Virus record (IMG/VR): IMGVR_UViG_3300009502_000019
Reading direction: 5' to 3' (one strand)
DNA from: a virus
Taxonomy: Duplodnaviria; Heunggongvirae; Uroviricota; Caudoviricetes
DNA: 23,990 nucleotides
This document shows positions 3,716-23,990 of the stretch, in pieces. The notes under the pieces are model-generated. The model worked only from the letters and a program-made list of their open reading frames with translations. It searched no databases and was not told where the DNA came from. The translations under genes and the position numbers were made by a program. Position 1 is the stretch's first letter. The number at the start of each line of letters is the position of its first letter.

Positions 3716-4069
3716 TCACCAATCATTCAGCTTGTCTATTATTTGCTTCTCATTCACTAAATTACCCTGGTAGCAGTCAACGCAGACAATGTAGTTAGGC
3801 TCCTGAACGTTCACCTCTCCCAAGCTAGCGATGGACTTGCCATCGTCTTTAAGCCGTACCTTCTGATTAGCTATACCAAACTCAACCATAAGCGCTCTAG
3901 GAACCTTCATGCAGTCATTGCACCATACCTTGCCCTCGGCAATAGCGGCCTTCTTCTCAGCGGCTATAGGTCCCATGCGCCTGGTTAGTTCATCACCACC
4001 AGCAGCCTTGAAGACGTTGTCAGCTTCCATGATCTTCTTGAGTGATGTAATGTCTTTTTCCAGGCTCAT
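3716..4069 (-). CDS. Leader/VFKAA-motif protein with a putative Zn-binding domain (CxxC...CxxC)
   Basis: MSLEKDITSLKKIMEADNVFKAAGGDELTRR, then EGKVWCNDC...VCVDC. Paralog of 1867..2205. Confidence 0.85.
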   Translation of the reverse strand: MSLEKDITSLKKIMEADNVFKAAGGDELTRRMGPIAAEKKAAIAEGKVWCNDCMKVPRALMVEFGIANQKVRLKDDGKSIASLGEVNVQEPNYIVCVDCYQGNLVNEKQIIDKLNDW

Positions 4070-5763
4070 TGAAAAATCTTCTCCAAGTGATCAACATCCA
4101 CATTCCTAAGTCCCTTACCATCCTGGAACTTGATGTCGGCCCTGACATCGTGCACTACCCAGTTAGTCCCGTAAGTATTTGTGCGCATGTCAGTAACTTT
4201 GCAAAACCTGCGGTAGTACTTGCTTGATGGATTTCCGCCCATGTACATTGCTGTGTCCCCAACCTGAATCTTTGACTCAGGACGCTTAGCTACATCTTCT
4301 GGACTTGCTGCTTTGAACACTTCCTCAGCCGCTTCATTCGTCACAGGAGTCAGGTAATCCTCAGTAGTCCACCTAAAGAAAATAAATGGGTGCACGAACT
4401 TAACTTCGTAACGGTAAAGCACCCCGCCTGTTGAGTCTTCAACAGGGCGATACATCGCTATCGTTCCAATGCGCCCATCCAAGTAATCATCAATGCCGCG
4501 TATTGAAGTGTGGTAGACAACCCGCTGACCATTTTGGAACTTAGGCTGCTTGATCCCACGCCTTGCAAGCTCTTCCTGGTTAGCAGCCTTAAATACTGGC
4601 TTGTTGACTGACTGATGCTTGTAGTCCGTTCCGCTAAGAGTCTCGTGGCTGATCAGATTCTCATCCCCTGCGTTAGGCATCACACCCGCCTCTTCGATCT
4701 TCTCGCCGCGAGCATGTATCGTAGCCGCGATCCAGTCCATGATCGTATCCATGCACTGTGCGCCTATTGCTGACCTGTTCTCATCCCCACCGTGCAGTAC
4801 TAGACCCACCCCGCGACAGCCCACCCTGCGGTAATGTCCAATCCTCTCATCCTTCCCAAAGATTGTGCTTACGTAATACCCGCCGTGGTAGCCATTGTCG
4901 AACTCAACTGTCCACTTAGGAGCATCTGAGTCTGACCAGTCCGACCGGCGCTTGTATAGTAAAACGTCCACGTTCCTCTTGTACTCAGCGTCGTAGAAAG
5001 ACTTGCTTACTTCCCCCGTCTTCCGGTCCAGATCTTCCCTGCGCTTGGCCACATCCTCAGCGCTAGCCGCTTTGAACACATGATCAGCCTCAAAGATACT
5101 CTTTAGGTCCGCAGTCATCCTGCCTACGTTCTTAACTGACTCGTTGTGGACAGGCTCATTATCTTCAGCGTTGTCTCTGTAGACATAAGTACCCTTCTTC
5201 TCGTCGTATACATACTCATCCGCGCCATACCCCTTAACATCAAACGCTAGCTCATAGGCTTCCTTGCTTCCTTCCTCTATGCCAGCGTTGTAGGTCTCAC
5301 TGCCTCCACGATACTCGAGCTCCCCGCAGTTCTGGCCAAAGTCCTCGTCAGCATACCTAACTTTGATAGTGACATCCGGGAACTTCTCGCTAAGTGCTCT
5401 AAAGATAGCGTAAGGAGCCCCCCAAGCAGTATCAAACCGCATCGTATGGTCATCTACCTTCTCTTGGCTGTAGGCATTCCACTTAGTGTCCCAATGCTCA
5501 ATGTTCCAGTTGTACCATCCCTGGTTCCTATATGCCTTCGTCTTAGGAGCCGGGATGATCTTGCCGAAGTCAATCTCGTGGATGTCTACTTTTCTGCGGG
5601 CCACCTCTTCTTCAGAGGCCGCAGCAAATACCACACCAGCCTTGCGAGCCGGAAGTGGCTTACTGGCAAGCGTTGGGTCCACAGGAGAGATGGCAGCAAA
5701 GATCTCTTTTACTCTCTTGGTAGGGCCTTCTATGGTGAGTATGTTCGTTACGTGATTAGGCAT
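4066..5763 (-). CDS. Mosaic multidomain protein: N-terminal YubB/Api92-like (DUF1281-type ferredoxin-like) domain plus three further domains, with four VF(K/A)AA motifs
   Basis: MPNHVTNILTI...IDFGKIIP...WYNWNIEHWDTKWNA...FDTAWGAP...LSEKFP...YADED pattern. Motifs at aa 45, 229, 390 and 482. The last two domains look SH3/KOW-like (KFQNGQRVVY..., KIQVGDTAMY...). Confidence 0.8.
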   Translation of the reverse strand: MPNHVTNILTIEGPTKRVKEIFAAISPVDPTLASKPLPARKAGVVFAAASEEEVARRKVDIHEIDFGKIIPAPKTKAYRNQGWYNWNIEHWDTKWNAYSQEKVDDHTMRFDTAWGAPYAIFRALSEKFPDVTIKVRYADEDFGQNCGELEYRGGSETYNAGIEEGSKEAYELAFDVKGYGADEYVYDEKKGTYVYRDNAEDNEPVHNESVKNVGRMTADLKSIFEADHVFKAASAEDVAKRREDLDRKTGEVSKSFYDAEYKRNVDVLLYKRRSDWSDSDAPKWTVEFDNGYHGGYYVSTIFGKDERIGHYRRVGCRGVGLVLHGGDENRSAIGAQCMDTIMDWIAATIHARGEKIEEAGVMPNAGDENLISHETLSGTDYKHQSVNKPVFKAANQEELARRGIKQPKFQNGQRVVYHTSIRGIDDYLDGRIGTIAMYRPVEDSTGGVLYRYEVKFVHPFIFFRWTTEDYLTPVTNEAAEEVFKAASPEDVAKRPESKIQVGDTAMYMGGNPSSKYYRRFCKVTDMRTNTYGTNWVVHDVRADIKFQDGKGLRNVDVDHLEKIFQ

Positions 5764-5922: not shown

Positions 5923-5993
5923 TATTTCCCCCTATCCGGACAGTCTGTCCTAGGGCAACTGCCGCACCTCTTGGAATCGTGAATACAGGACAC
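5922..5993 (-). CDS. Possible 23-aa Cys-rich micro-ORF bridging the portal stop and the next start
   Basis: GTG overlaps the portal TAG (TAGTG). Translates MSCIHDSKRCGSCPRTDCPDRGK. Its TAA overlaps the next ATG (TAATG). Confidence 0.4.
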   Translation of the reverse strand: MSCIHDSKRCGSCPRTDCPDRGK

Positions 5994-8900
5994 TACTTTG
6001 TCCCTTCGTTCAGGGAGGTAACGTTAATGGGAGCATCCTTCCACTGGCTCTCCCACAACTGTCCTGTCTTGTGGTTTGGAAGGGGCGAGCTCAAGTCACT
6101 GATTCGTAGCGACTCCTTACTTTCTCTAAATGGGTTGGTTGCCTCTTGCTCCTCTTCTCCACCTTCAGCTGCTGGCTCTTCTACACCAGGTACAGGAACA
6201 TCTCTATGGTCTCCCTGTATGGCCTTAGCATCACCCTTCAGGTACAAGGTGTCTAAGTCAAGGTCTGACAGCTTAAAGAACTTCTCATTGAAGTACGTAA
6301 GGAGCTCTTTCTTGTTGAGGTCTACTCCAACCATATCCTGAAGCATGTCGTACAAACCGCGGGTGGCATCCACAGACTTCCCTAGTGCGTCCTGGAGCTC
6401 TACCTCTTCTGCACTGGAAGATTGCGACATGTGGATCTGGAAAAGGTCTAGGTCAGGATCGAGGCCTTGCCAAGCAAGGTGTATCTGTGCCATCCTGGTG
6501 AGCCCGTTGATCAAACTTCTCTGTACTCTACGTGCTTGTCTGGCGAACCGGATGTCCATACGCTCTAAGGCTGTACCGCCTTCGAAGCCCCCACCGCCTT
6601 CACCTGAGAATCCCGCGAGGAGCTGCTTTGGGACTTTTAGAGCGGTAATCAACTGATTCTCAAGTTTATCTACGTCAGCGATCCACTTAATATCCGTATC
6701 TCCACCTAGGGTCTCTACCGTGAGGTTGTTGCTGTCTCCCCATACCGGGAATATCAAATCCTCACAACTTGCCATAGCGTTGAAGCGATCCAAGTAGCCT
6801 GGGTTGTTGGAGTCGAGATTGAGTGCTCTAGAGTTATGGACAAAAATACCACAACTCAATGCAAAGTTGTGGTTCTTCTCTGTAGAAATATCATACGTAT
6901 CAACTGTATACGGCAGAACTTCTACACTTATTACTTTATGGTTGAGAACTGTGTGTTTCCGCTTAGCCCAACTAATTTTTCCGCCCAAACTTATTTTCTT
7001 CCTCGATTCAAATGTTTGTTTATGCCCGGGCTTTCCAATATGTGATAATGCAATCTTACGATTATGATCCTGACTATTTTTCTTATTCTTCCTGTGATGG
7101 TATTGAACATACGCTTGATCTGAACTTATCTTACATTCGAATGTTTCACCACAACCGCACCCACAAACCCGAGTCTCTTTAGGTGCTACTGGTTTATTGT
7201 GGTTACCCATCTTTGACTTAGACGCTTTGGCACGAACCTCGGGGCGACCCATCGGATTACTCTGTTTAACTTTATCCGATATTACTTGCATTCGACGGTC
7301 AGTTTCTTTAGTTAATCCGTCATTCCAACTTTTTCTAAAACCTAAGTCATATTGTACCTGTTGGGTCTCCGAAACACTTTTAGCATACTTTGCAACTCTT
7401 TCATCGGTTTCTTTAGTCAATCCTTTATTCCACGCTTGTATAGACCCTCGCTTAGCAATAATCTTATCCGTGAATAAGTGATGAATAGACATGTGGTCAT
7501 GCTTGGTAACAATCTTCAGATTAGACGGGTCATCGTCCAGCTTGTTTTCGTTTTCGTGGTGAACTACACAATCTTTAGGAGTTTTCCCGTCTATACATTC
7601 CGAAACAAGCTTATACACCAACGGGAATTTTCCAGTCTTGGGGTTAAGAACCTGCCGTCTGCCTTCGCTGCTTACCTTAGTATACAATGGCATCAGGCTA
7701 TCACCCTGAACCAAGTCCTTGGCTTCTTTGAAGCTCCCGTCCCTCATCATAAACCTGTGGTCTGGAGTGCATTCGACATACTCTTCATTGTCTAAATGAA
7801 CTCTCATAACAGTAGCATCAACAACTGTCTTAGCGACATCTACAATCTTGTCAGGCTCAATAGCCTTCGTTATTGGATTAACACTGTATACGTATTTTCC
7901 AACATACTTCTCCTTATTTTCAGCCATTTCCTTAATTGTAGGATTAGTATTGTTCAACAAAGCTATTTTGGTGTCACCAACCAAGCAACGTTTGATCTCA
8001 GTCATGTACTGGTCTACCAGGTTAGCTACAGCTTCCGCGTTTGCATTATCTTCTGGGATCGTCACTTTGAAGAGGAAGCGTTGAGGACTTTTCATAATTC
8101 GCGCCATCATGATAGAGTCTTCTGCGAGCCTAAGGCGTTTCCAAATTGGGAGGGCGTCTGCGAGGATGCTTGTGCCGTACTTGGAGGTTAATCGGCGTGC
8201 ATCTGGGGTCATTATACTCACCGTCCTGAACTCGCTGTTGGAAATAAACACACCCGCTGTTACTGGAAAATTGTGGTTGCCTGAAATTTCTATATCGTAA
8301 GTATCCTCTCTTTCAGTTAGCCACTCAACTATGACTACCTTGTGGTTTAGAACAGCGGCCTTCTCTAAATTCTTGGGGCTCACCTTGCATCCCTTGGCAT
8401 GCCCTGCTAATCCTGGATATTTTCCTACCCATTTCTTTCCACAATATTTGCAGGTTAGTTCTTTTATCTCATTTACAGCTTCTTTTATTAGGTTTGTACA
8501 ATGGTGTCTAAATGCTGGGTCTGAGTATGCTTTTTGTTGACCTTCTTTCGTCCTTTTTGCCTGCTTATCGTGATACTCTTTATCGCTCCAAACCTTCTTC
8601 GAGCCTTCTCCAATGTTTCTTTTCCACTCAGTATTTTCATTTCGCTCTTCCATAGCCCGGTTAAACTTATCTCTATAAGCAGGGTCTTCAAATCGTTCTA
8701 CCGCTTTCTGACTAATTTTCTTGCCGTGCTCATCCCACAGCTCAGGATTCTCAGCTTTACTTCGTGCGACCCCATCCTTAACTGACTTTCTATGGGCCTC
8801 TTTCCATTCGGGATCCTGCCTAAGCTCATCTAAGTTATTTGCATGTATCTCCATGTGCTTAGCCTTAGTAACAACCTCTAAACACTTGGGATCATTATTC

Positions 8901-11900
8901 TTCTTATCAAACAACTTTCGTTCATCCCCCCAGTGGTGGACAATACTGCCTTTTGGAGTCTTACCATATGTTTGCTTGGCAACCAGCCTATGAATAAAAT
9001 GCCATTCTCCATCTGCTGGGTTATATACCTGCTGGTAATCCTTAAATCTCTTTCTGGAATCTTCTCGAGTATACAACGGCATTAGGCTCTCTCCCTGGAA
9101 AAGATCCTGCGCTTCCTTGTAGCTACCATCCCTAAGCATAAACTTATGATCTGGTGTGCAGTCAATATGTTGTTCATTATCAAGATGAACACGTACCAGT
9201 TGAGCATCTAGGCGGGTTTTCTTTGCATCTACAATTTGCCCAACCTCAAGATTAAGGGTCTGCGGATTGATTGTTAGTACAGATTTTCCTTTATAGAAAG
9301 CGAGGTTCTCTGTGATTTCTTTTATGGTTGGGGTTGTATTATCTAGAAGATTTATTCGTGTATTTCCAGCTATACAATATTGTTGATCGGCGTATAGTGG
9401 CCTCCGCTTCTTGGCTCCTAAGAGTCTGAAGTGTACATGGTCCCACGGTGCTAGTAACTTACGGGTGTCTGTAGTTGCGTAGCCGAGTGGAGTCTGGAAA
9501 AACCCCACTAATCTTCCGTTGTGATCTACCCTGCTGACGTTGATTGGATGGTTATCATCGTTGACGCATATGAGTCCTACGCCTGGTTCTCCAAAACACT
9601 CTACAAAGAGATCACCGAAAGCTGCTGTAGTCCAGGCCCAATCGTATATGACTTCCTCGATGTTGATCACGTCCAGCATCTTCTCCAGCTGGTAGCGATA
9701 TTCTTTATTGTCAGAAGTTACCCACACAGTTGAACCGTGTAGTGGGGAGCGCTGACAAGCTGTGTCTGCAAATGCGACACACGCCGCGCTATTGTGAACA
9801 AACACTCCGGCGGACAAAGCAAAATTGTGGAATGGCTCTATTGTTAGATCATAGACGTCTGCCACAGCGTTTAGCCTTACAACTTCTTTTACCTTGTGAT
9901 TCCTAATCCCCTTATTCCACGGTGTCCCACCAACCTTAGACTCCGCCATATGCATGACGCGCTCGTCTGTCTCTTTTGTGAGCCCGACGTTCCAACGCGG
10001 CTTAGTCGCATACTTAGCAACTCTAATGTCTTCTTTTGTCAGCCCTTTGTTCCAAGCCGTCTGCCCGATCTTACCCTTATTGTGAGGAGCCCTGCCTCTC
10101 ATTGCGGAGTTCCTACACTCATACGAACACGTCTTACGACGTGGATCCATCAGATCCGTGCATACAGGGCAAGGAACTTTCTTGTGATTGAACTCATAGA
10201 TCCTAATGGCTTCTTCGCGGCTAACCCCATAATGGTTCTGAATGGTACGAATAGCCTGGGCGAACCTGGCTTCCTGTGGCTTCGTGTGAACTGCACTGTG
10301 GTCTTTTTTGGAGAGGATGGAGTGGTTCTCCGGAGAGTCATCTAGTTTATTTAATGCGGAGTCTTTGAAATTTGTGTAAGAGTGGTGGACATGATTACCT
10401 GTACCGCGGTTCTTGTTGAAGTATGTGTACTGGACGCTATAGTGCTTTGGCTCTGCCTGGCGTGCGTTAAATGGGTCGTAGAGCCGCCAATACCCCTTGC
10501 GGTACTCCTTATCCACATACCGGTATAGAGGCATAAGGGAGTCATCTGGCTTAAGCTGCTGGGCTTCCTTGTATGATCCGTCCCTAAGCATGAACCTATG
10601 GTCTAGTGTGCAGCGGATCTCTTCGCCGTTGTCCAAGACAACCTTCAAGATCTCCTTAGTCCCAGTCTTCCAAGCTCGTTTAATCGGGCTACGAACGATC
10701 TTCTTACCGTCTAGGTCTATCGAATAAACATGGTTTACTTTACCCTGTTCATACTCTTTAGCCAACTGCTCCATTGACACATCCCTGCCGTCAAGCAGGG
10801 CGACCTTGGTGTCACCTGTGAAGCACATGAGGGCGTGGTTAAGTGAGCGATCGACTACCTGGTAAACCGAGTTGTGAACAAATACTCCGGCAACCGTTGG
10901 AAAATTGTGGTTACGTTCTGTTGAAATATCGTAAACATCTTCACGAACAGTAAGCGTCTCAACAAATAAAACTTTGTGGTTTTTGAGCGACTTGGTTTTC
11001 TTAACCCCAGTAGTTTTTCGTCTGATAAGCTCTATTACACAATCGCGCTTACTGCACGACTGGCGATTCCCCACTTTGGTCGTAAATTCACATCCGCACA
11101 CAACACACGTTTTAGTCAGGAGGGGTCTACGATATCTTTTGATATTCCAAATAGCCTTTGTTTGCTGTTCCCTGTATTCTGGACTGTTCCATAAAGCCTG
11201 TTGTGCATCTTTACGTTTTTGCAGCCAAAATGGCTTCTGTGCGTTTAGTTTGTTAGCACAGTCTCTGCACACCCTCCAGTCGCTTGTAACAATAACTGTC
11301 TTTGTAAGACCGCATCCGCCCAAACATTCTCTGGTTTCTCTGGGCTTGACCATCTTCCTATGAAGTTTCTGTAAATGCTCCTTGTGACTTACTTCGTTAA
11401 AATGTATCTTGTTGTGGTCGGACTTTGACATCCTTTCCAGACAAGATGGGTCATTGTTTACCTTATCATATTTGCACCGATCGTCTCCCTTGTGGTGCAC
11501 TATCACTCCCTTAGGGCGTTTGCCGTTGAAAAACTTATCAACTAGCCAATGAACGTATGTCCACCCACCCTTCGGCTTGTAAACCATTAAATAATCTTTT
11601 AAAACTTTTGCTGGTTTCTTTAGGTACAAAGGCATCAAACTTTCCCCTTGAGCCAAGTCCTTTGCTTCCTTAAAGGTCCCATTCCTAAGCATAAACTTAT
11701 GGTCTGGTGTGCAGTCAATGTGATTCTCATTGTCTAGATGAACGCGAATCATCTCTGCATTTAGGCGAGTTTTTGTTGCGGCTAATATCTTATCTGGCTC
11801 GATTTCAAGCGTGGTTGGATTAACTGAAAGAACGTACTTCCCAACATAGTCTTGGTTGTTCTCAGCCATCTCTTTGATTGTTGGAGTAGTTCCGTCTAGG

Positions 11901-12112
11901 AGGGAAATTCTAGTGTCCCCACGAAGGCAGCTGCGTTCGTAGATGATGAGGTTTTGGTCTGAGATGACCTGGCGGAGAGCTTCGTTGGATATCCCATACG
12001 CCTTCCACATATCCGCGTCTTCTTTGGAGGTTGCTACTTTCTTTACTTCTGGCGGGGTGACTGGGGTGCGTTCAGGAACTAACTTTTGGCGTAGAAACTT
12101 TAGGATATCCAT
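5993..12112 (-). CDS. Portal protein (T4 gp20-like) precursor containing four inteins; predicted mature protein 576 aa
   Basis: Joined exteins (61+15+138+83+279 aa) give T4 gp20-like motifs: LNHALMSAACVAFADTA, HVHFRL, YGTSILADALPIWKRLRLAEDSIMMARIMKSPQRFLFKV, EDLIFP...ETLGG, LITALKVP, IRFARQARRVQ. Confidence 0.9.
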   Translation of the reverse strand: MDILKFLRQKLVPERTPVTPPEVKKVATSKEDADMWKAYGISNEALRQVISDQNLIIYERSCLRGDTRISLLDGTTPTIKEMAENNQDYVGKYVLSVNPTTLEIEPDKILAATKTRLNAEMIRVHLDNENHIDCTPDHKFMLRNGTFKEAKDLAQGESLMPLYLKKPAKVLKDYLMVYKPKGGWTYVHWLVDKFFNGKRPKGVIVHHKGDDRCKYDKVNNDPSCLERMSKSDHNKIHFNEVSHKEHLQKLHRKMVKPRETRECLGGCGLTKTVIVTSDWRVCRDCANKLNAQKPFWLQKRKDAQQALWNSPEYREQQTKAIWNIKRYRRPLLTKTCVVCGCEFTTKVGNRQSCSKRDCVIELIRRKTTGVKKTKSLKNHKVLFVETLTVREDVYDISTERNHNFPTVAGVFVHNSVYQVVDRSLNHALMCFTGDTKVALLDGRDVSMEQLAKEYEQGKVNHVYSIDLDGKKIVRSPIKRAWKTGTKEILKVVLDNGEEIRCTLDHRFMLRDGSYKEAQQLKPDDSLMPLYRYVDKEYRKGYWRLYDPFNARQAEPKHYSVQYTYFNKNRGTGNHVHHSYTNFKDSALNKLDDSPENHSILSKKDHSAVHTKPQEARFAQAIRTIQNHYGVSREEAIRIYEFNHKKVPCPVCTDLMDPRRKTCSYECRNSAMRGRAPHNKGKIGQTAWNKGLTKEDIRVAKYATKPRWNVGLTKETDERVMHMAESKVGGTPWNKGIRNHKVKEVVRLNAVADVYDLTIEPFHNFALSAGVFVHNSAACVAFADTACQRSPLHGSTVWVTSDNKEYRYQLEKMLDVINIEEVIYDWAWTTAAFGDLFVECFGEPGVGLICVNDDNHPINVSRVDHNGRLVGFFQTPLGYATTDTRKLLAPWDHVHFRLLGAKKRRPLYADQQYCIAGNTRINLLDNTTPTIKEITENLAFYKGKSVLTINPQTLNLEVGQIVDAKKTRLDAQLVRVHLDNEQHIDCTPDHKFMLRDGSYKEAQDLFQGESLMPLYTREDSRKRFKDYQQVYNPADGEWHFIHRLVAKQTYGKTPKGSIVHHWGDERKLFDKKNNDPKCLEVVTKAKHMEIHANNLDELRQDPEWKEAHRKSVKDGVARSKAENPELWDEHGKKISQKAVERFEDPAYRDKFNRAMEERNENTEWKRNIGEGSKKVWSDKEYHDKQAKRTKEGQQKAYSDPAFRHHCTNLIKEAVNEIKELTCKYCGKKWVGKYPGLAGHAKGCKVSPKNLEKAAVLNHKVVIVEWLTEREDTYDIEISGNHNFPVTAGVFISNSEFRTVSIMTPDARRLTSKYGTSILADALPIWKRLRLAEDSIMMARIMKSPQRFLFKVTIPEDNANAEAVANLVDQYMTEIKRCLVGDTKIALLNNTNPTIKEMAENKEKYVGKYVYSVNPITKAIEPDKIVDVAKTVVDATVMRVHLDNEEYVECTPDHRFMMRDGSFKEAKDLVQGDSLMPLYTKVSSEGRRQVLNPKTGKFPLVYKLVSECIDGKTPKDCVVHHENENKLDDDPSNLKIVTKHDHMSIHHLFTDKIIAKRGSIQAWNKGLTKETDERVAKYAKSVSETQQVQYDLGFRKSWNDGLTKETDRRMQVISDKVKQSNPMGRPEVRAKASKSKMGNHNKPVAPKETRVCGCGCGETFECKISSDQAYVQYHHRKNKKNSQDHNRKIALSHIGKPGHKQTFESRKKISLGGKISWAKRKHTVLNHKVISVEVLPYTVDTYDISTEKNHNFALSCGIFVHNSRALNLDSNNPGYLDRFNAMASCEDLIFPVWGDSNNLTVETLGGDTDIKWIADVDKLENQLITALKVPKQLLAGFSGEGGGGFEGGTALERMDIRFARQARRVQRSLINGLTRMAQIHLAWQGLDPDLDLFQIHMSQSSSAEEVELQDALGKSVDATRGLYDMLQDMVGVDLNKKELLTYFNEKFFKLSDLDLDTLYLKGDAKAIQGDHRDVPVPGVEEPAAEGGEEEQEATNPFRESKESLRISDLSSPLPNHKTGQLWESQWKDAPINVTSLNEGTK
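6833..7987 (-). mobile_element. Intein 4 (385 aa, class 1) with an HNH-like endonuclease and WNKGLTKE repeats
   Basis: Begins CLVGDTKIALLN, has CTPDH, ends YDIST...HNF...VHN followed by Ser+1. Contains VVHHENENKLDDDPSNL...HMSIHH, WNKGLTKETDERV and CGCGCGETF. Confidence 0.93.
8237..9376 (-). mobile_element. Intein 3 (380 aa, class 1, non-canonical penultimate Ser) with an HNH endonuclease
   Basis: Begins CIAGNTRINLLD, has CTPDH, ends YDIEI...HNF...VFISN followed by Ser+1. HNH region IHRLVA...IVHH...NNDPKCLE...HMEIH, then helical repeats and CKYC...H...C. Confidence 0.92.
9791..10825 (-). mobile_element. Intein 2 (345 aa, class 1) with an HNH-like endonuclease and WNKGLTKE repeats
   Basis: Begins CFTGDTKVALLD, has block B CTLDH, ends YDLTI...HNF...VHN followed by Ser+1. 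Contains HVHH...NKLDDSPEN...HSAVH, CPVC/CSYEC and WNKGLTKE repeats. Confidence 0.93.
10871..11929 (-). mobile_element. Intein 1 (353 aa, class 1) with an HNH endonuclease and Cys-rich C-terminal module
   Basis: Begins C1 (CLRGDTRISLLD), has block B CTPDH, ends YDIS...HNF...VHN followed by Ser+1. HNH region VHWLV...VIVHH...NNDPSCLE...HNKIH. Also CLGGCG, CRDC, CVVCGC. Confidence 0.93.
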
Positions 12113-15015: not shown

Positions 15016-15285
15016 CTATACCTCGCCAGAAGTGCCACCGGAAGACCTCTTTTGGCGACTTATAACTGGCGTGAACCACGCCTTATCAATCCATCCGCTG
15101 ATCTTACTTACCTTAATCCACTGACCTGAGGTGCCTTCAAACGAAACCTTTCGTGTCTCTAAAACTTTCATTACCTCACTCTTTAAACAGGCGTATTTCA
15201 TTGCCTCCCCGGGGATCTGCTCGTCAAACGGGCACCCCACAAGCACAACCAACTCACCTACCTTTAGCTGCCTAGTCTTTTTCAT
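15016..15285 (-). CDS. Hypothetical protein, possibly SH3-like (likely start MKKTR at 15285)
   Basis: LKVGELVVLV...QWIKV...GWIDKAWF. ATGA overlap with the nrdJ stop. Confidence 0.6.
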   Translation of the reverse strand: MKKTRQLKVGELVVLVGCPFDEQIPGEAMKYACLKSEVMKVLETRKVSFEGTSGQWIKVSKISGWIDKAWFTPVISRQKRSSGGTSGEV

Positions 15286-17201
15286 TTGATTGGGCAAACT
15301 CCCTTTGAGCATTCTTCCACGTTCAAGTCCTCAGTACCGATATTTGTCTTTGTTATATCCTTGAGCCCGGCAGTAAGCTCCTTATACCTGTCTTCCGTTA
15401 TCTCTTCGTAAGGCGCCTGATCAAACCCATGCTCGCTGTGCAATAAGAAACTGACGCTCTTAATGTTCTCTTTGTAATGCTCCTTAAGCCACTTCTTTAT
15501 TTCCGGGATCTCCTCTTTCTTGTAGTACACCGTGACACTTACAGCATTATCGGCCCACACGGTCTGCATCTGCTTTACGAGATCCAGCTGCTTGATGGCT
15601 GTCATGTCCTTTGCGAGCATAACGTCATTCCCGGCAAAGCATGGAAACTCAACTACCATAGTCGCGTGATCAACTGTCCCATCAAAGTTCGATACGTAGT
15701 CAACCTTGTATCCTCGCTTCTTGCACACATCGATCAACTTATCATCTGAGGACATGCGTACGCGCCTAATGTAATACCTGCTATAGGCCGGGTGAATACC
15801 GGGAGTAGCTCCTGCGAGAAGGCTCAAAGTGCCGCTAGGCTTAACTGTAGTGAGCTTAATGCTCTCGTTATACCCCTGCTTCTTACTCCACTCCTTGTCA
15901 AACACTCGAAGAGCCTTGTATGCTTCATTTAGCCACTCGAGCTTGTGAAATGACTGGCAGATGCCCGTGCACCCAACTCCAATACGCATGTTCTTATGGA
16001 CGATCTTATTTGTCTCCTCATGGATAAAGTTAAGGTTGCAGACCGCTTTCTGCGCCTTGTATAGAAGCTTTGCGCAGTCAATCAGTTCCTCTTTAGACTG
16101 GACATTATTTAGATACAACTCAGACAGGTTGCAGCACTCCTTGTCAGCCAGTGCAATCTCAGCACATGGGTTGACCCCCTGGCAGTTGTCCTTGCGATGC
16201 TCACCCACGCGCCCGATCCTCTGAGCGAGCTTCACATTAAAGAGCCCGTAGGGCTCCCCATTACCGTGGTACCCTTCCCACACGTCGTTTGTGATATGAG
16301 TGTAGTCATCAGCAAAGATGGTATTGTTGGAAAGAGCTCTCCAGTTAGGGATGTGCCCCAAGTCCCACCTCTTTGCACGGATAAAGAGGTAATCATCCGG
16401 GTCGCCCAATGCGATCTGAGCGGATCTACGAATGTTCCCGGATACAACGATGCTCCCAATGATGTTACACACATCGAGCACATCGATCGACCGGAGCTTT
16501 TTACCCTCCCTCGACTGAAGTGTCTTCGTTATGTTTGCTATCCCCTCAACAAGAATACCCGGTCCTGACGCAGTGCCTCCGAAGCCCTGAATCTTCTCTC
16601 CGTACCCGCGAACGATTATGGTTGAGTAGCTAAAGGAACGTCCCGTTACAAAGAAAGACTTGAGCAAGCGACGCAACAACGCTACCCATCCCTCGCGACT
16701 ATCCGGTACAATGAAGTCGGCGTCCTTTGTGTTTAAATGAGTAATCTTTACCCCTTCCTGAACCTTAGGAAGCTCATAAACATCTTCGCGGCTTACAGAA
16801 AACCCAACTCCTCCGCCAAGCATCAAATTCTCAAACAAAAAACAGAAGTCCTCTGGCTCGTTCATCTGCACAAACCAGCAATTCAAAAGGCCGTTGCCTC
16901 CGTACCTCTTTATACCGGAAGTCCCAAGTTGCCAAAGCATTCGGCCGGCCATATTACATCTAAGATTAAACATGTGATCAAATAGCCGTTCCGCCTCATC
17001 TTTTGTATAGCCAGCACCGATCTCCTGAGCCCCGTTGATACAACGTGCAACGGTCTCATACCACTCCTCGTTACTTCCGTCCGGATTAATACGACTATAT
17101 GTCCTTTTGTATACAACATATCCAAGACCATTAAACCCAAATGGCGGGGTCTTGTCTTTGTATTTGGCTAAGAACCCGTCAGTAATTATCTTGTCAGTCA
17201 T
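15282..17201 (-). CDS. nrdJ: Class II (adenosylcobalamin-dependent) ribonucleotide reductase, RTPR-type; no ATP cone, no intein
   Basis: VYKRTYSR, LLNCWF, GGGVGFS, PDSREGW, GNIRRSA, NPCAEI, CNLSE, TTVKPSGT and C-terminal ECSKGVCPIK. The AGAAGGA SD spacing fits the ATG at 17201 better than 17210. Confidence 0.95.
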   Translation of the reverse strand: MTDKIITDGFLAKYKDKTPPFGFNGLGYVVYKRTYSRINPDGSNEEWYETVARCINGAQEIGAGYTKDEAERLFDHMFNLRCNMAGRMLWQLGTSGIKRYGGNGLLNCWFVQMNEPEDFCFLFENLMLGGGVGFSVSREDVYELPKVQEGVKITHLNTKDADFIVPDSREGWVALLRRLLKSFFVTGRSFSYSTIIVRGYGEKIQGFGGTASGPGILVEGIANITKTLQSREGKKLRSIDVLDVCNIIGSIVVSGNIRRSAQIALGDPDDYLFIRAKRWDLGHIPNWRALSNNTIFADDYTHITNDVWEGYHGNGEPYGLFNVKLAQRIGRVGEHRKDNCQGVNPCAEIALADKECCNLSELYLNNVQSKEELIDCAKLLYKAQKAVCNLNFIHEETNKIVHKNMRIGVGCTGICQSFHKLEWLNEAYKALRVFDKEWSKKQGYNESIKLTTVKPSGTLSLLAGATPGIHPAYSRYYIRRVRMSSDDKLIDVCKKRGYKVDYVSNFDGTVDHATMVVEFPCFAGNDVMLAKDMTAIKQLDLVKQMQTVWADNAVSVTVYYKKEEIPEIKKWLKEHYKENIKSVSFLLHSEHGFDQAPYEEITEDRYKELTAGLKDITKTNIGTEDLNVEECSKGVCPIK

Positions 17202-17250
17202 CTGTCTCATTCCTTCTCCACGGTGTCCGTGGTCTATGACTTAGTTTTAC

Positions 17251-17447: not shown

Positions 17448-18083
17448 CTATAGATCTAACATCATTGCCCTGTACTTCGGCTCGTAGTCCTCGGTACATA
17501 CAGACGCATTAACAAACCTGGTGTCTCCTATCTTCTCCTCACCAAACCCCCTATGAATGTGCCCGAACACGTGGACACGCGGACTTACTTCTTGTATCTT
17601 ACTAAGCAATGCCTTACAACCAACGTGGTGGTCTCCATAGGTGTGCATTACGTAGTCGCGTATTTTGTAAGGAGGTCCGTGTGTTACCAAAACATCCAAC
17701 CCCTTCTGTATCCCCTCCCAGTACCTTCCTATCTTGTCCCTGTCCTCCATAAAGTGCCAGTACATGAACCTAGGTGTCATCGGAGACCCCCAAAACTTTA
17801 AACCATCCAACACACAGCCTGTGTTCTCCAAGTACACACACCCGGACTCTACTATAAGCCCCTCTACAGTGCCAAAGCCCTTCTCAAGTACCTCGTCATG
17901 ATTTCCGGCAATGAACACCTTGTGCTTATGTGGCTGCTTCTTAAACCACGCTAGGAAGTTTATAAAGCTCTTGAATGAGCCATCCATAGTGACATCCCCG
18001 GCATGAACCAGAATATCCCCGTCTGGAACCTCAACGTGAGTGTGCAACCCGTGCGTGTCAGATATTGTTACTATCCGTGTCAT
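17448..18083 (-). CDS. Calcineurin-like metallophosphoesterase (likely start MTRIVTISD at 18083)
   Basis: Complete motif set: SDTHG, HAGD, AGNHDE, THGPP, FGHIH. Confidence 0.92.
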   Translation of the reverse strand: MTRIVTISDTHGLHTHVEVPDGDILVHAGDVTMDGSFKSFINFLAWFKKQPHKHKVFIAGNHDEVLEKGFGTVEGLIVESGCVYLENTGCVLDGLKFWGSPMTPRFMYWHFMEDRDKIGRYWEGIQKGLDVLVTHGPPYKIRDYVMHTYGDHHVGCKALLSKIQEVSPRVHVFGHIHRGFGEEKIGDTRFVNASVCTEDYEPKYRAMMLDL

Positions 18084-18091
18084 GTCAGTAC

Positions 18092-18325
18092 CTATGCAAG
18101 GATTGCCGTTCCGATGGACACACCAATCAACCCAGAAACCCACCCACAAAACCCTGAAAACATTACCCTAGCGATACCAAAAGCAATCCACGTTGCGTTA
18201 ACTGGAGTTGCCTTAACTCCGTTAATTAACTGAACTATCCCACCAACTAGCATGACCCATACCCCAAGCCATACACCTAACGCAACACCAACCGCCACTA
18301 CGGACAACCCTATTAACGTTCGCAT
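18092..18325 (-). CDS. Small membrane protein with two hydrophobic segments (likely start MRTLIG at 18325)
   Basis: Two ~25-30 aa hydrophobic Gly-rich stretches. AGGGGG SD. Confidence 0.7.
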   Translation of the reverse strand: MRTLIGLSVVAVGVALGVWLGVWVMLVGGIVQLINGVKATPVNATWIAFGIARVMFSGFCGWVSGLIGVSIGTAILA

Positions 18326-18344: not shown

Positions 18345-18902
18345 TTAGTTTCCGATCTCATTTTTTACCTTAGCTATAACCTTTGCCAATCTCCTGGAAA
18401 CAGCCCGTCGGCTAACACCGATAACCTCACCCATCTCAAAAAAAGACATACCTTTTTCAAATCGAAGCGACAGCAGCTCCCGCTCCTTAACAGATAGATA
18501 CGGAGCATTAAAAATAAAGTGTGCCTCGAGTGCGTCATCAGATGGCCTGGTCACAACGGGCGCGTTCTCCAGGAGCCCCACAGGCTCCTCCGTCTTTATC
18601 GTAATGTACTTAGCTTCTATTTCACGCTTAACATACGCGCAGATAACCTTCATAATTATAAATGCCGGGGCATCTGGCTTAAACTGTGCCATAGCGTTTC
18701 CAAACCCAAGTATAGCCGTGTGATATACGTCCTCCAGAGAAACGTTCAACCTGTTACGATACCTCCACGCCAGCTTGACCAAGTACTTGTCATATTTAAG
18801 CAAAAGCAAATCAAATAACTTCTCATCCCTAGTTTCCTGGTACTTGTGGATAACTCTCTTACAGTGCTCCGGTGTCCAGTTTGTAAAATCAGCTATAGGC
18901 AT
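18345..18902 (-). CDS. Phage sigma70-family RNA polymerase sigma factor (regions 2 and 4; likely start MPIADF)
   Basis: LLLKYDKYLVKLAWRY...EDVYHTAILGF...F (region 2-like). LSVKERELLSLRFEKGMSFFEMGEVIGVSRRAVSR (region 4 HTH). Confidence 0.8.
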   Translation of the reverse strand: MPIADFTNWTPEHCKRVIHKYQETRDEKLFDLLLLKYDKYLVKLAWRYRNRLNVSLEDVYHTAILGFGNAMAQFKPDAPAFIIMKVICAYVKREIEAKYITIKTEEPVGLLENAPVVTRPSDDALEAHFIFNAPYLSVKERELLSLRFEKGMSFFEMGEVIGVSRRAVSRRLAKVIAKVKNEIGN

Positions 18903-18915
18903 ACACGTATCTCGA

Positions 18916-20868
18916 CTATCCCCGATTATGCATCCGTTTAAATATGTCATTTATCTTGTCGACTGTGTCTCCCTGCTTTGTTCCGACGATCGTCTCGCCC
19001 TTCTTAGTTTCGGTAAGCCTTGATATATTCTCGGTTGTGTCCTGCGCCTTTGTGGACGTCCGGTCCATCATCTTCGATATAAGGTCAAAGTTCATAGGCT
19101 TCTTAGACTTTAAGGCGTTGTGCACTGCACCGGCTGTAGCATCGGCCAAGTCTTTTGAACCCTTTAGCACCTTCTCTTCTCCTGAAGCATCCCTGTCGAT
19201 AAACCTGTCTGGGTGGTCGATCTTGCCCTCTATCTTGTCATGTTCGAGGTTATCCAGCTCGGTAATTAGCAAAGGAAGGTGGTGACATACCCAACGACCT
19301 TCCTGAACAACGTCTCTAAACGAGAAGTATGGCTGAAGTGTTCTGTCCAAGCTAAGATCATCTGTCGTAATTCCCGCGGCAGTAAGCAGCTGCTGAGTAT
19401 CCTCAGACATGTTCTTCAAGTCCGCTGTGAACAGCTCAATAAAGTACCCTGCAGCTCTTATGTCCAGCACAAGCTTACGGATCTTGTGAAACGGTATCCT
19501 ATCCCCAGGCCTAGCTTTAATCCTGACTGAAAAGTCTGTCTCAACTATAGGAACCATGTCCTTCCTGTAGGTCCCGTCCTCGTTCTGAATGTCGACTGAC
19601 CGCCATTCCTTAACTCCGGCCATAGACAAGGCACAAGCGTCACCCTCTCCAGAGAACGCAATGTCATAGTGGAAGAAGCGGTGCTTGTCCTTAGGTAGGC
19701 GTATCCGGCTTAGGTCAAAATACTTAATGTACTCACTCGGATCGTTTAACCCGGTCTCAATCACCTCAACCTTTACTGGATTCTGCTTAGTGTTGTCGAG
19801 ACAAGTTAAAATGTCCTGCCTGGATGCGAACAGCTTCGATTTTCTAACACCGGCAACGGTAACACCTGCAATTTCACGCAAAGCTCTTATAAGATCGCTT
19901 GCAAAGTTCGACTTGAACTCTACAGGAACATCAATGATGCTATATCCTTTGGCCACGTAGGCCGCCTGCTGCCCGTCATTGAGGATCTGTGGTGGGTTAA
20001 ACGAGTCCCCAACAGCAACTGGAAACGTCTTTCCTGAATACTTCATTGCTGGCTGTGCCTTCCACAGAGGAACGTCATAGATAGCTACCTCAGGAAACTT
20101 CTTGCGCTCGGCAATGAACGCGTCCATAAATGACATCTCGTCCATCTTAGACGATACGACGAAGAGCTTACCCAAGCTGTTCCCTTCACTCGCAAAGCTT
20201 GTCTTAAACCGGATCTCAGCAGCGTTGTAGACGTTTAAGACTCGCCTTTTCTGGGTGAGGGACTCGTCCTCGGTGTCAACTTCGTCCAGAATACCGGACA
20301 CAACGTCTGACCCGACGATACCGTAGCCTTTGGAGTACGGAGACGCTAATAGAAACTCAACATTAGGGAATACGAGCGTATCCCCGTACTTAGTCTGAGA
20401 AGTATACGACGCCTTACTCCTAAACCAAGTCGACTTGATGAGTGAAGCCTGCAACTTTGAAAACCCCCTTGATCCACCAAGCGTCTTGTTGAGGTTGAAG
20501 AAAATAATAGCCATGCGGCTTGAAGAAGTGAGCCCAAAGTAGTCCCATGGGTTCTTCAAAATAAGAAGCCGGTACAAAACGTAAGCAAGACCATACAGAG
20601 CAATTGTGGACTTTCCAGTACGAACTGACCCGGTAAGAACAATAGTGGTCTTGCTCATATCGTCAAAGATCTCAGTAAGCGCGTCCTTCCACACCGGAAA
20701 AATAGCCTTCCCGTTGTTTGTGCTCTTACCCAAGAATCTGTTATCAGTTAGAAAAGTCCAAACATCTACTGGCGACTCGTTGTAGTCCTTCGCCATTGCA
20801 AAATCATAGTGTGTTTGAATCCCCTCTATTGTCCGAGCCAGCTGAGCCTTCCTGTCTGTACTCTGCAT
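18916..20868 (-). CDS. terL: Terminase large subunit
   Basis: DY.E.PVD..TFL.D..FLG N-terminus. Walker A LTGSVRTGKS, Walker B GILDE, RNase H-like nuclease HYDIAFSGEGDA and SKDLADA. Start is uncertain (20868 or 20796). Confidence 0.92.
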   Translation of the reverse strand: MQSTDRKAQLARTIEGIQTHYDFAMAKDYNESPVDVWTFLTDNRFLGKSTNNGKAIFPVWKDALTEIFDDMSKTTIVLTGSVRTGKSTIALYGLAYVLYRLLILKNPWDYFGLTSSSRMAIIFFNLNKTLGGSRGFSKLQASLIKSTWFRSKASYTSQTKYGDTLVFPNVEFLLASPYSKGYGIVGSDVVSGILDEVDTEDESLTQKRRVLNVYNAAEIRFKTSFASEGNSLGKLFVVSSKMDEMSFMDAFIAERKKFPEVAIYDVPLWKAQPAMKYSGKTFPVAVGDSFNPPQILNDGQQAAYVAKGYSIIDVPVEFKSNFASDLIRALREIAGVTVAGVRKSKLFASRQDILTCLDNTKQNPVKVEVIETGLNDPSEYIKYFDLSRIRLPKDKHRFFHYDIAFSGEGDACALSMAGVKEWRSVDIQNEDGTYRKDMVPIVETDFSVRIKARPGDRIPFHKIRKLVLDIRAAGYFIELFTADLKNMSEDTQQLLTAAGITTDDLSLDRTLQPYFSFRDVVQEGRWVCHHLPLLITELDNLEHDKIEGKIDHPDRFIDRDASGEEKVLKGSKDLADATAGAVHNALKSKKPMNFDLISKMMDRTSTKAQDTTENISRLTETKKGETIVGTKQGDTVDKINDIFKRMHNRG

Positions 20869-21802: not shown

Positions 21803-22543
21803 TCAGTCCCCCTTTTGTTGGAATCCGTGGTGCCCTAACTTCCATCCTTTTTGCATATAGGTGTCTAACAAGTCAGCTATAACACGCTCTCGCTTAAGTG
21901 TCTCCGGGTTATACACCCACCTAGTGCCTTTAGTCGCCTTACTTATCCTACCTTTTGAGTCGGTGGACATATTTTTATGTCCTTGATGGAGCTTCTCAAG
22001 ATGCTCTGGTGATATAATCTTACCTTTTTGAGCACGACTCATGGCTTGACGTGCACTATCTGACCGCTTCCTTCCGGTATGTGCTGCACTCATCTTCTGC
22101 AACTGCTCTTGGGTATGCTTGCGTCCAAACCACGTAGGGCCGCCGTCTCCGCCAGGAGTTAGATTTGTTAAGATGCCTCTCTTTACTCCTTGCACTACCG
22201 CTATAGTACCTAATTCTTTTATAACAAACTTTTCTATCGAACGGGCTAAGCTTGGAAGCAACCCCTCCTTCAAAATAAGCACAATTGGGCTTAAGCCATC
22301 CGCCTGAATACTACGAATTTTATTTACTTTTAGCTTGTTTGCATCATTAGACGTAAGATGCCTAAATCTACGTCCTTTTACCCCACACCCAACATAAAAC
22401 GGCTCAAAGGCTGCTTTACTGTGGTACACCACTTTGTTGTATGGTTTTCGAGGATCACAGTAGCAATAGACATAACTCGTAGACGAGTCATTCAAAACGT
22501 CCGAGTGCCCTTCTGGCTTAATAGGACCTTTGTAGTCACTCAT
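21803..22543 (-). CDS. Free-standing GIY-YIG homing endonuclease with NUMOD3-like repeats
   Basis: YVYCYCDPR...PFYVGCG...R...E...LTNLTPGGDG, then GRKHTQEQLQKMS, GRKRSDSARQAMS and GKIISPEHLEKL. Confidence 0.88.
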   Translation of the reverse strand: MSDYKGPIKPEGHSDVLNDSSTSYVYCYCDPRKPYNKVVYHSKAAFEPFYVGCGVKGRRFRHLTSNDANKLKVNKIRSIQADGLSPIVLILKEGLLPSLARSIEKFVIKELGTIAVVQGVKRGILTNLTPGGDGGPTWFGRKHTQEQLQKMSAAHTGRKRSDSARQAMSRAQKGKIISPEHLEKLHQGHKNMSTDSKGRISKATKGTRWVYNPETLKRERVIADLLDTYMQKGWKLGHHGFQQKGD

Positions 22544-23164: not shown

Positions 23165-23990
23165 CTAGTACATCCCCATCCCGCCCATACCAGGAGTTGC
23201 CGCTGCAGCTGGTGTCGTCGGCTCCGGCTTGTCCGTAACCACAGCTTCTGTGGTCAAAAGCAGGGCTGCAATAGAGGACGCATTCTGCAATGCCGACCGT
23301 GTTACTTTGGTGGGGTCGACAATACCGGATTCAATCATGTCAACGTAAGTGTCGTTGAACACGTCGTATCCGATGTTAACGTCCCTTTGCACAATGTTCA
23401 TGATCACCACAGAACCGTCAATTCCGGCGTTAAGAGCAAGCTGACGAATAGGCTCCTCTAATGCCCTCTTGATGATGTTCAAACCGATAAGCTCATCACC
23501 CTCAAGAGTAAGCTCAGCAAGCTTAGGAATAGTCCTAAGCAAGCCAACTCCTCCACCAGGGATAATGCCTTCCGCGACAGCCGCTCGCGTGGCATGAAGG
23601 GCGTCTTCTACACGCGCCTTCTTCTCTTTCATTTCGCTCTCGGTAGTAGCCCCGACATTGATAACAGCCACTCCGCCAGAAATCTTAGCAAGACGTTCCT
23701 TGTTCTGATCCCTGTCGTAATCGTTAGTGGATGTCTCAATCTGGGTCTTGATACGAGCAACACGAGCGTCAATGGTCTCCTTTGTGCCAAAACCCTCAAC
23801 GATCATGGTGATGTCCTTGGTCACCTTGATCTTCTTTGCTTGGCCAAGATCAGCAAGAGTAACGTTCTCAAGTGTTACTCCCGTCTCATCAGAGATGACC
23901 TTGCCACCTGTGATGATAGCAATATCCTCAAGGATCTCCTTCTTGCGGCTTCCAAACCCAGGAGACTTAACACAACACGCCGGAAGAATC
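23165..23990 (-). CDS. groEL: Chaperonin GroEL (group I), 3' part; frame is open to the window edge
   Basis: Reading upstream of the track ORF gives [23 protein letters not shown]. Also [63 protein letters not shown] and a GGM tail (PGMGGMGMY). Confidence 0.97.

Follow-up and report, generated by a model that had tools for sequence, protein, structure and literature searches.

A predicted gp20/P1-type phage portal gene carrying four inteins, and the distribution of inteins across its family

Results

A portal gene interrupted by four inteins

We analyzed a 23,990-nucleotide stretch of the IMG/VR virus record IMGVR_UViG_3300009502_000019 (hereafter, the window), in which the gene of a phage portal protein is a single open frame of 2039 amino acids (aa) at positions 5993..12112 of the minus strand that contains four inteins. 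The inteins account for 1463 of the 2039 aa (71.7%), and the exteins of 61, 15, 138, 83, and 279 aa join into a protein of 576 aa. It is very likely that this portal gene has been invaded by four selfish class-1 inteins of one family bearing HNH endonucleases, and that their splicing is needed for viability. In Pfam, the precursor matched Portal_T4 (3.2e-23, 82.6 bits), Intein_splicing (2.2e-84, in four stretches), and HNH_3, and in PHROGs it matched portal and HNH endonuclease families. The original prediction, which had been made from the sequence alone, described four complete inteins and five exteins of these lengths, and every number was found to be correct from the motif positions and the Pfam matches.

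The intein boundaries were set from the motif positions, and all parts of the gene lie on the minus strand. Extein 1 (11930..12112, aa 1–61) is the N-terminal part of the portal and covers positions 1–64 of the portal profile. It is followed by intein 1 at site s61 (10871..11929, aa 62–414, 353 aa), which has Cys1, a His-Asn end, Ser+1, and an HNH insert; by extein 2 (10826..10870, aa 415–429), the 15 aa that separate inteins 1 and 2; and by intein 2 at site s76 (9791..10825, aa 430–774, 345 aa). Extein 3 (9377..9790, aa 775–912, 138 aa) represents the wing region and matched profile positions 77–215 at 7e-78. Intein 3 at site s214 (8237..9376, aa 913–1292, 380 aa) has a Ser-Asn end and precedes extein 4 (7988..8236, aa 1293–1375, 83 aa), which holds the stem helix and the start of the clip. 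Intein 4 at site s297 (6833..7987, aa 1376–1760, 385 aa) is followed by extein 5 (5993..6832, aa 1761–2039 and the stop codon), which contains the rest of the clip, the stem, the tunnel loop, the crown, and an acidic tail. Extein 5 alone matched Portal_T4 (PF07230) at 1.1e-15 with 57.8 bits, compared with the curated cut-off of 22.9 bits, and covered profile positions 296–590 at 1e-106. The GC (guanine plus cytosine) contents were 40–43% for inteins 1, 3, and 4, 48.7% for intein 2, and 50% for the exteins.

The joined exteins as a phage portal

With extein 5 as the seed, a word-based protein search found homologs at 42–64% identity, many of which are intein-free (573–616 aa) and others of which are longer. 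The joined exteins aligned to 17 intein-free homologs with all four junctions free of gaps, which is the check on intein-free alleles that the original prediction had proposed. In the alignment with the intein-free homolog P0004, residues 1–574 of 576 were aligned with 57% identity. The junctions adjoin the invariant family residues R69, H82/M85, E229/R231, and K309 (P0004 numbering).

A profile of the intein-free members was compared with solved structures and matched the portal of phage P1 (9ums_C, 8.3e-22) and gp20 of phage T4 (1.7e-7). An AlphaFold2 model of P0004 was built from 77 intein-free sequences, with a predicted local distance difference test score (pLDDT) of 80.7 and a predicted template modeling score of 0.77; an earlier model from 17 sequences (pLDDT 54) was discarded. 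The top 50 matches of the P0004 model in the PDB were all portals, the P1 connector 9ums_C (E 1.9e-14) and T4 gp20 being the first. Judged on this model, the family is predicted to have the portal fold of wing, stem, clip, and crown. With domain names taken from the canonical portal fold, sites s61 and s76 would lie in the N-terminal wing helices, s214 in a conserved loop ahead of the descending stem helix, and s297 where the clip helix ends. The gene product can be assigned to the gp20/P1-type portals of phages, as the Portal_T4 match and the profile and structure matches to P1 and T4 gp20 suggest. The gp20-like portal of the original prediction is upheld by these matches, and the joined exteins matched the portal profile collinearly.

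Splicing residues and endonuclease motifs

Each intein alone scored 73–87 bits against Intein_splicing (PF14890), for which the cut-off is 35.8 bits, with matches that extend from profile position 1–3 to 153–155 of 155. The scores of inteins 1, 2, 3, and 4 were 86.9, 86.5, 73.2, and 75.9 bits, respectively. The four inteins share 31–46% pairwise protein identity, and in their alignment Cys1, T74 and H77 of block B, the residues of blocks F and G, and the terminal Asn are invariant. All four end in Asn and are followed by Ser+1; three have a His-Asn end, and intein 3 has Ser-Asn. Among the 77 inteins that we located in the portal family (see below), Cys1, the block-B His, and the terminal Asn are each present in 77 of 77, and the C-terminal end is His-Asn in 73, Ser-Asn in three, and Ala-Asn in one. 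In the HNH region, four histidines (His-His ... His ... His) are invariant in the four aligned window inteins, and inteins 3 and 4 matched HNH_3 (PF13392) with 28.5 and 29.3 bits, both above the cut-off of 24.8 bits.

We compared intein 4 with the intein that occupies the same site in the family member P0032, with which it shares 76% identity (BLASTP). The number of nonsynonymous substitutions per site (dN) was 0.11 for the intein, 0.146 for its endonuclease part, and 0.16 for the exteins; synonymous substitutions (dS) are saturated for nearly all pairs, so that dN alone is comparable and no dN/dS ratios are given. The whole s297 intein, including the endonuclease part, is kept by purifying selection, since dN is low while dS is saturated.

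Occurrence in freshwater metagenomes

The gene is present in freshwater and lake metagenome runs from four DNA studies of 2016–2020, and in the four runs that were mapped nearly all contigs on the gene are at least 99% identical to it. In run X4, which was not flagged as a possible source of the record, contigs bridge all eight intein/extein boundaries with 0–1 differences per piece; one piece of 2181 nt (record 13) contains intein 2 and the 15-aa extein and extends into intein 1. The RNA run X10 contained 6% of the sampled words only.

These data bear on whether the four-intein arrangement could be an assembly chimera of inteins from co-occurring phages. The inteins are paralogous, metagenome assemblers can misjoin repeats, and stray matches of 21–38 nt to contigs of runs X1 and X6, followed by divergence, occur at 8355–8375 and 8709–8729 (intein 3) and at 7395–7432 (intein 4) of the window. 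However, inteins with 31–46% protein identity are too divergent to misassemble, the independent X4 contigs bridge every junction, and a protein identical to the 2039-aa precursor is encoded by a separate contig of 202.6 kb. We rejected the chimera on the X4 contigs that span all eight boundaries and regard it as exceedingly improbable. The X1 and X6 contigs with the short matches probably carry related inteins of other phages from the same lakes.

Intein load across the portal family

When 1.84 billion representatives were searched with a profile, 704 matched at E ≤ 1e-30, and from these a survey set of 69 near-full-length cluster representatives (50% identity) with at least 450 bits was taken. 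Inteins were located in this set by hidden Markov models of the N- and C-terminal splicing blocks. No intein was found in 28 of the 69 representatives (41%), one in 20, two in 15, three in four, and four in two (the window protein and P0036), so that the carriers number 41 (59%). No other representative has more inteins than the window protein, and in none is the intein share as large as its 72% (the next being 66%). The original prediction would have been less novel if portals with four or more inteins were common in this phage group; four-intein portals are rare (2 of 69), which leaves that part standing, but inteins as such are the majority state (41 of 69), which lowers the novelty.

The 77 inteins occupy 29 distinct positions, which were checked by the local extein context, and 58 of them are of full size and 19 are mini-inteins. 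Several positions are neighboring codons: 60/61, 69/70/71, 76/77, 130/131, 297/299, 313/314, and 317/318/319. Site s214 is also occupied in P0015, P0034, P0040, and P0059. The two closest relatives of the window protein have two and three inteins, and one of those sites is in common with the window. P0036 (1477 aa, from a Logan assembly), the only other four-intein portal found, has three mini-inteins of 143–180 aa and a fourth intein of 401 aa at site 235, which has LAGLIDADG-type Pfam hits and is unrelated to the HNH lineage.

Four intein-free members (P0010, P0021, P0023, and P0025) have Cys residues at the positions that match residues 70 and 72 of the spliced window protein. These coincide with the +1 Cys of the s69 and s71 inteins in other family members, and they could be either footprints left by the precise loss of an intein or pre-existing nucleophiles that guided insertion.

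The original prediction suggested that splicing could be a kinetic or conditional gate on head assembly; inteins co-opted in this way would respond to redox state, metal, or temperature and would time portal maturation. Conditional splicing is known elsewhere, for example in a zinc-inhibited DnaB intein (PMC7360933); a portal that needs four successive splicing events must mature with some delay, and the allele has been stable over years. Inteins that form a conserved regulatory device should share a site, but no site is conserved family-wide: 28 of the 69 representatives are intein-free, the others have their inteins at 29 different positions, and even the two nearest relatives have only one site in common with the window. 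Moreover, no extein Cys lies near any Cys1 in the window precursor, the 77 family inteins do not share a conserved Cys beside block B, and no conserved candidate redox partner for Cys1 was found in the window exteins or in those 77 inteins. The proposed gate is thus unsupported, and we consider it unlikely.

Relationships among the inteins

In a tree of the 77 inteins, all belong to one family except two at site 235. The s61 intein of the window groups with the s61 intein of P0057 (branch support 96/85), and its s297 intein forms a pair with the P0032 intein at that site (100/99), which is sister to the s299 inteins (95/84). The s76 intein falls in a clade with the s71 intein of P0032 and the s69 intein of P0035 (100/98), so that a single lineage is found here at three positions of an eight-codon span. 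The placement of the s214 intein was not resolved. The tree indicates that the lineage has spread among sites across the family.

A recent duplication within the window gene was considered because s61 and s214 paired in a tree of 25 inteins (84/90); it was rejected when the pairing was lost with 77 inteins, and the 77-intein tree gave no evidence of a recent duplication within this genome. No co-conversion was detected around the shared s297 intein, as the identity of the extein DNA to that of P0032 and P0033 stays level at approximately 0.6–0.8. In two other family members, P0040 (sites 71 and 214) and P0053 (sites 77 and 313), the inteins of the same gene are mutually nearest in the tree (96/79 and 85/66, respectively), and these pairs are candidates for spread within one gene.

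Discussion

Probable invasion by selfish inteins

In the proposed course of events, the 2039-aa precursor would be translated late in infection and each intein would excise itself through an N-S acyl shift at Cys1, transesterification to Ser+1, cyclization of the terminal Asn, and an O-N shift. This would yield a 576-aa portal that can assemble into a dodecamer, along with four free inteins that bear endonucleases, and a late release of four endonucleases, as the original prediction supposed, is reasonable to expect. During mixed infections, the endonucleases would cut intein-less portal alleles and repair would copy the intein in (homing). The inteins would then persist as selfish passengers and not as regulators, because the sites adjoin invariant residues, which makes them conserved targets at which an imprecise deletion would be lethal. 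We favor selfish homing because the inteins are patchily present and occupy many sites, because mini-inteins occur as decay products, and because the endonuclease is under selection; the low GC content of three of the inteins relative to the exteins also counts in its favor.

Several points weigh against this interpretation. The IMG/VR record that holds the window is an 83.6-kb fragment with an estimated completeness of 39%, and a second portal gene may lie elsewhere in the genome. Intein 3 has no penultimate His. The HNH_3 score of intein 1 (20.5 bits) is below the cut-off, and intein 2 was not matched by an endonuclease family of Pfam. The 15 residues between inteins 1 and 2 could slow folding or splicing, and the splicing of all four inteins is itself predicted from their residues. 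No intein-less allele of the same phage was seen in the lake runs, whose contigs drop rare variants and are uninformative either way, and the closest relatives are approximately 68–70% identical in extein DNA. For these last two reasons, homing itself is inferred.

The Ser-Asn end of intein 3 and the incomplete record could also mean that at least one intein is dead for splicing and that the window holds a decaying or non-functional portal gene while a second portal is encoded elsewhere in the genome. Against this, the frame of 6.1 kb is free of stop codons and all other catalytic residues are intact, Ser-Asn or Ala-Asn ends occur in three other family inteins, the allele is nearly unchanged in four studies, and the 83.6-kb record has no second portal. 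We consider such decay to be very unlikely, and the invasion of a working portal gene by selfish inteins remains the interpretation that we adopt.

Genome and neighboring genes

The 83.6-kb record contains one portal gene only and these four inteins only. The 202.6-kb contig with the identical protein, together with contigs of relatives of up to 214.8 kb, indicates that the host of the gene is a jumbo phage of approximately 200 kb from lakes. The relatives' contigs share neighbors of the portal gene, namely a sigma factor upstream and a DUF1281_C protein downstream. When the whole window was compared with 50,697 phage records by megablast, no match was obtained, and tblastn gave distant portal and intein matches only; no isolate relative was found by either search. 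A scan of viral contigs with extein 5 gave relatives at 28% identity only, which are uninformative on the junctions, and an Rfam search of the window gave no match.

All the neighboring genes of the window described here lie on the minus strand. Directly downstream of the portal gene, 4066–5763 encodes a DUF1281_C ferredoxin-like domain, and this neighbor is conserved in the 214.8-kb contig of a relative (L019, 13960–14676). Two free-standing open reading frames at 602–1294 and 21803–22543 have NUMOD3 and weak GIY-YIG matches and are probably homing endonuclease genes; the genome would thus host mobile nucleases besides the inteins. The portal gene is the sole intein-invaded gene of the record: the ribonucleotide reductase at 15282–17210, which is of class II (B12-type) and has 642 aa, is intein-free, even though such enzymes are well-known hosts of inteins. 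The window also encodes a metallophosphoesterase (17448–18149), a sigma-70 region-4 protein (18345–18950), and the C-terminal half of a GroEL-like chaperonin that is cut by the window end (23165–23990), which are typical jumbo-phage cargo.

Comparison with known systems

The original prediction regarded structural proteins as uncommon intein hosts, which is overstated for portals, since portal inteins have been published in several groups. In the parts of these sources on which we draw, SPP1-gp6-like portals are the second most frequent intein host of the mobilome, with 14 inteins in prophage portals (Novikova et al. 2016, PMC4760082); six portal inteins occur in cluster C1 mycobacteriophages (Kelley et al. 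2016, PMC5050341); and the portal inteins of actinophages are polyphyletic and fall into several insertion groups (Gosselin, Arsenault and Gogarten preprint, 10.1101/2025.01.02.630785). Like the inteins of the window, these are class-1 inteins inserted in frame in an essential phage portal gene. They belong, as far as those parts of the sources extend, to other portal families, with no mention of multi-intein portals, whereas the window has four inteins in one gene of the gp20/P1 type. The intein phylogeny in the corresponding part of the actinophage preprint is of the LAGLIDADG type, whereas the window inteins carry HNH endonucleases.

Several inteins in one essential gene are also found in ribonucleotide reductase and MCM helicase, and in these cases, as in the window, neighboring sites can be co-occupied. 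The ribonucleotide reductase of Trichodesmium carries four inteins. In the MCM helicase of haloarchaea, there are four neighboring insertion sites (Turgeman-Grott et al. 2023, PMC10643990). These hosts are cellular enzymes of replication or nucleotide metabolism, whereas the window gene encodes a structural protein of the virion, has two full-size inteins 15 codons apart, and belongs to a family with 29 insertion positions. The crAss-like Zeta group, with up to three inteins per genome, mainly in TerL (PMC7886860), and the Jug phages (PMC12880540) are, like the phage of the window, large and uncultured, with core genes that are rich in self-splicing elements and homing endonucleases; in contrast to the Zeta group, the window has four inteins in one gene and none elsewhere in the 83.6-kb record. 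Full-text searches of the literature, the incomplete coverage of which makes them weak evidence of absence, returned no report of a four-intein portal or of the gp20/P1-type portal family as a hotspot.

Significance

The four-intein portal exemplifies a known phenomenon in extreme form and stands at the top of the distribution in its family. It leaves the general understanding of inteins or portals unchanged. Four splicing reactions in each of twelve subunits before a head can form would be a stringent natural test of intein efficiency, and four related but distinct inteins that, to judge from their residues, function in close proximity may be useful for multi-fragment protein ligation.

We lean slightly toward the view that the gp20/P1-type portal of freshwater jumbo phages is the densest intein hotspot observed so far in any protein family (29 positions, 59% of representatives invaded), occupied almost entirely by one lineage of HNH inteins that moves between neighboring codons, which would imply that ectopic homing is frequent and that its choice of targets is relaxed; the window allele would then be its most heavily loaded natural example, stable for at least four years. 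The acquisition of new insertion sites by inteins is a step that is rarely caught in nature, and the family, with its many sites, single lineage, shifts between adjacent codons, and full-size and mini forms, offers a compact data set on this step. What most deserves following in this finding is how the insertion sites are distributed at the level of the family.

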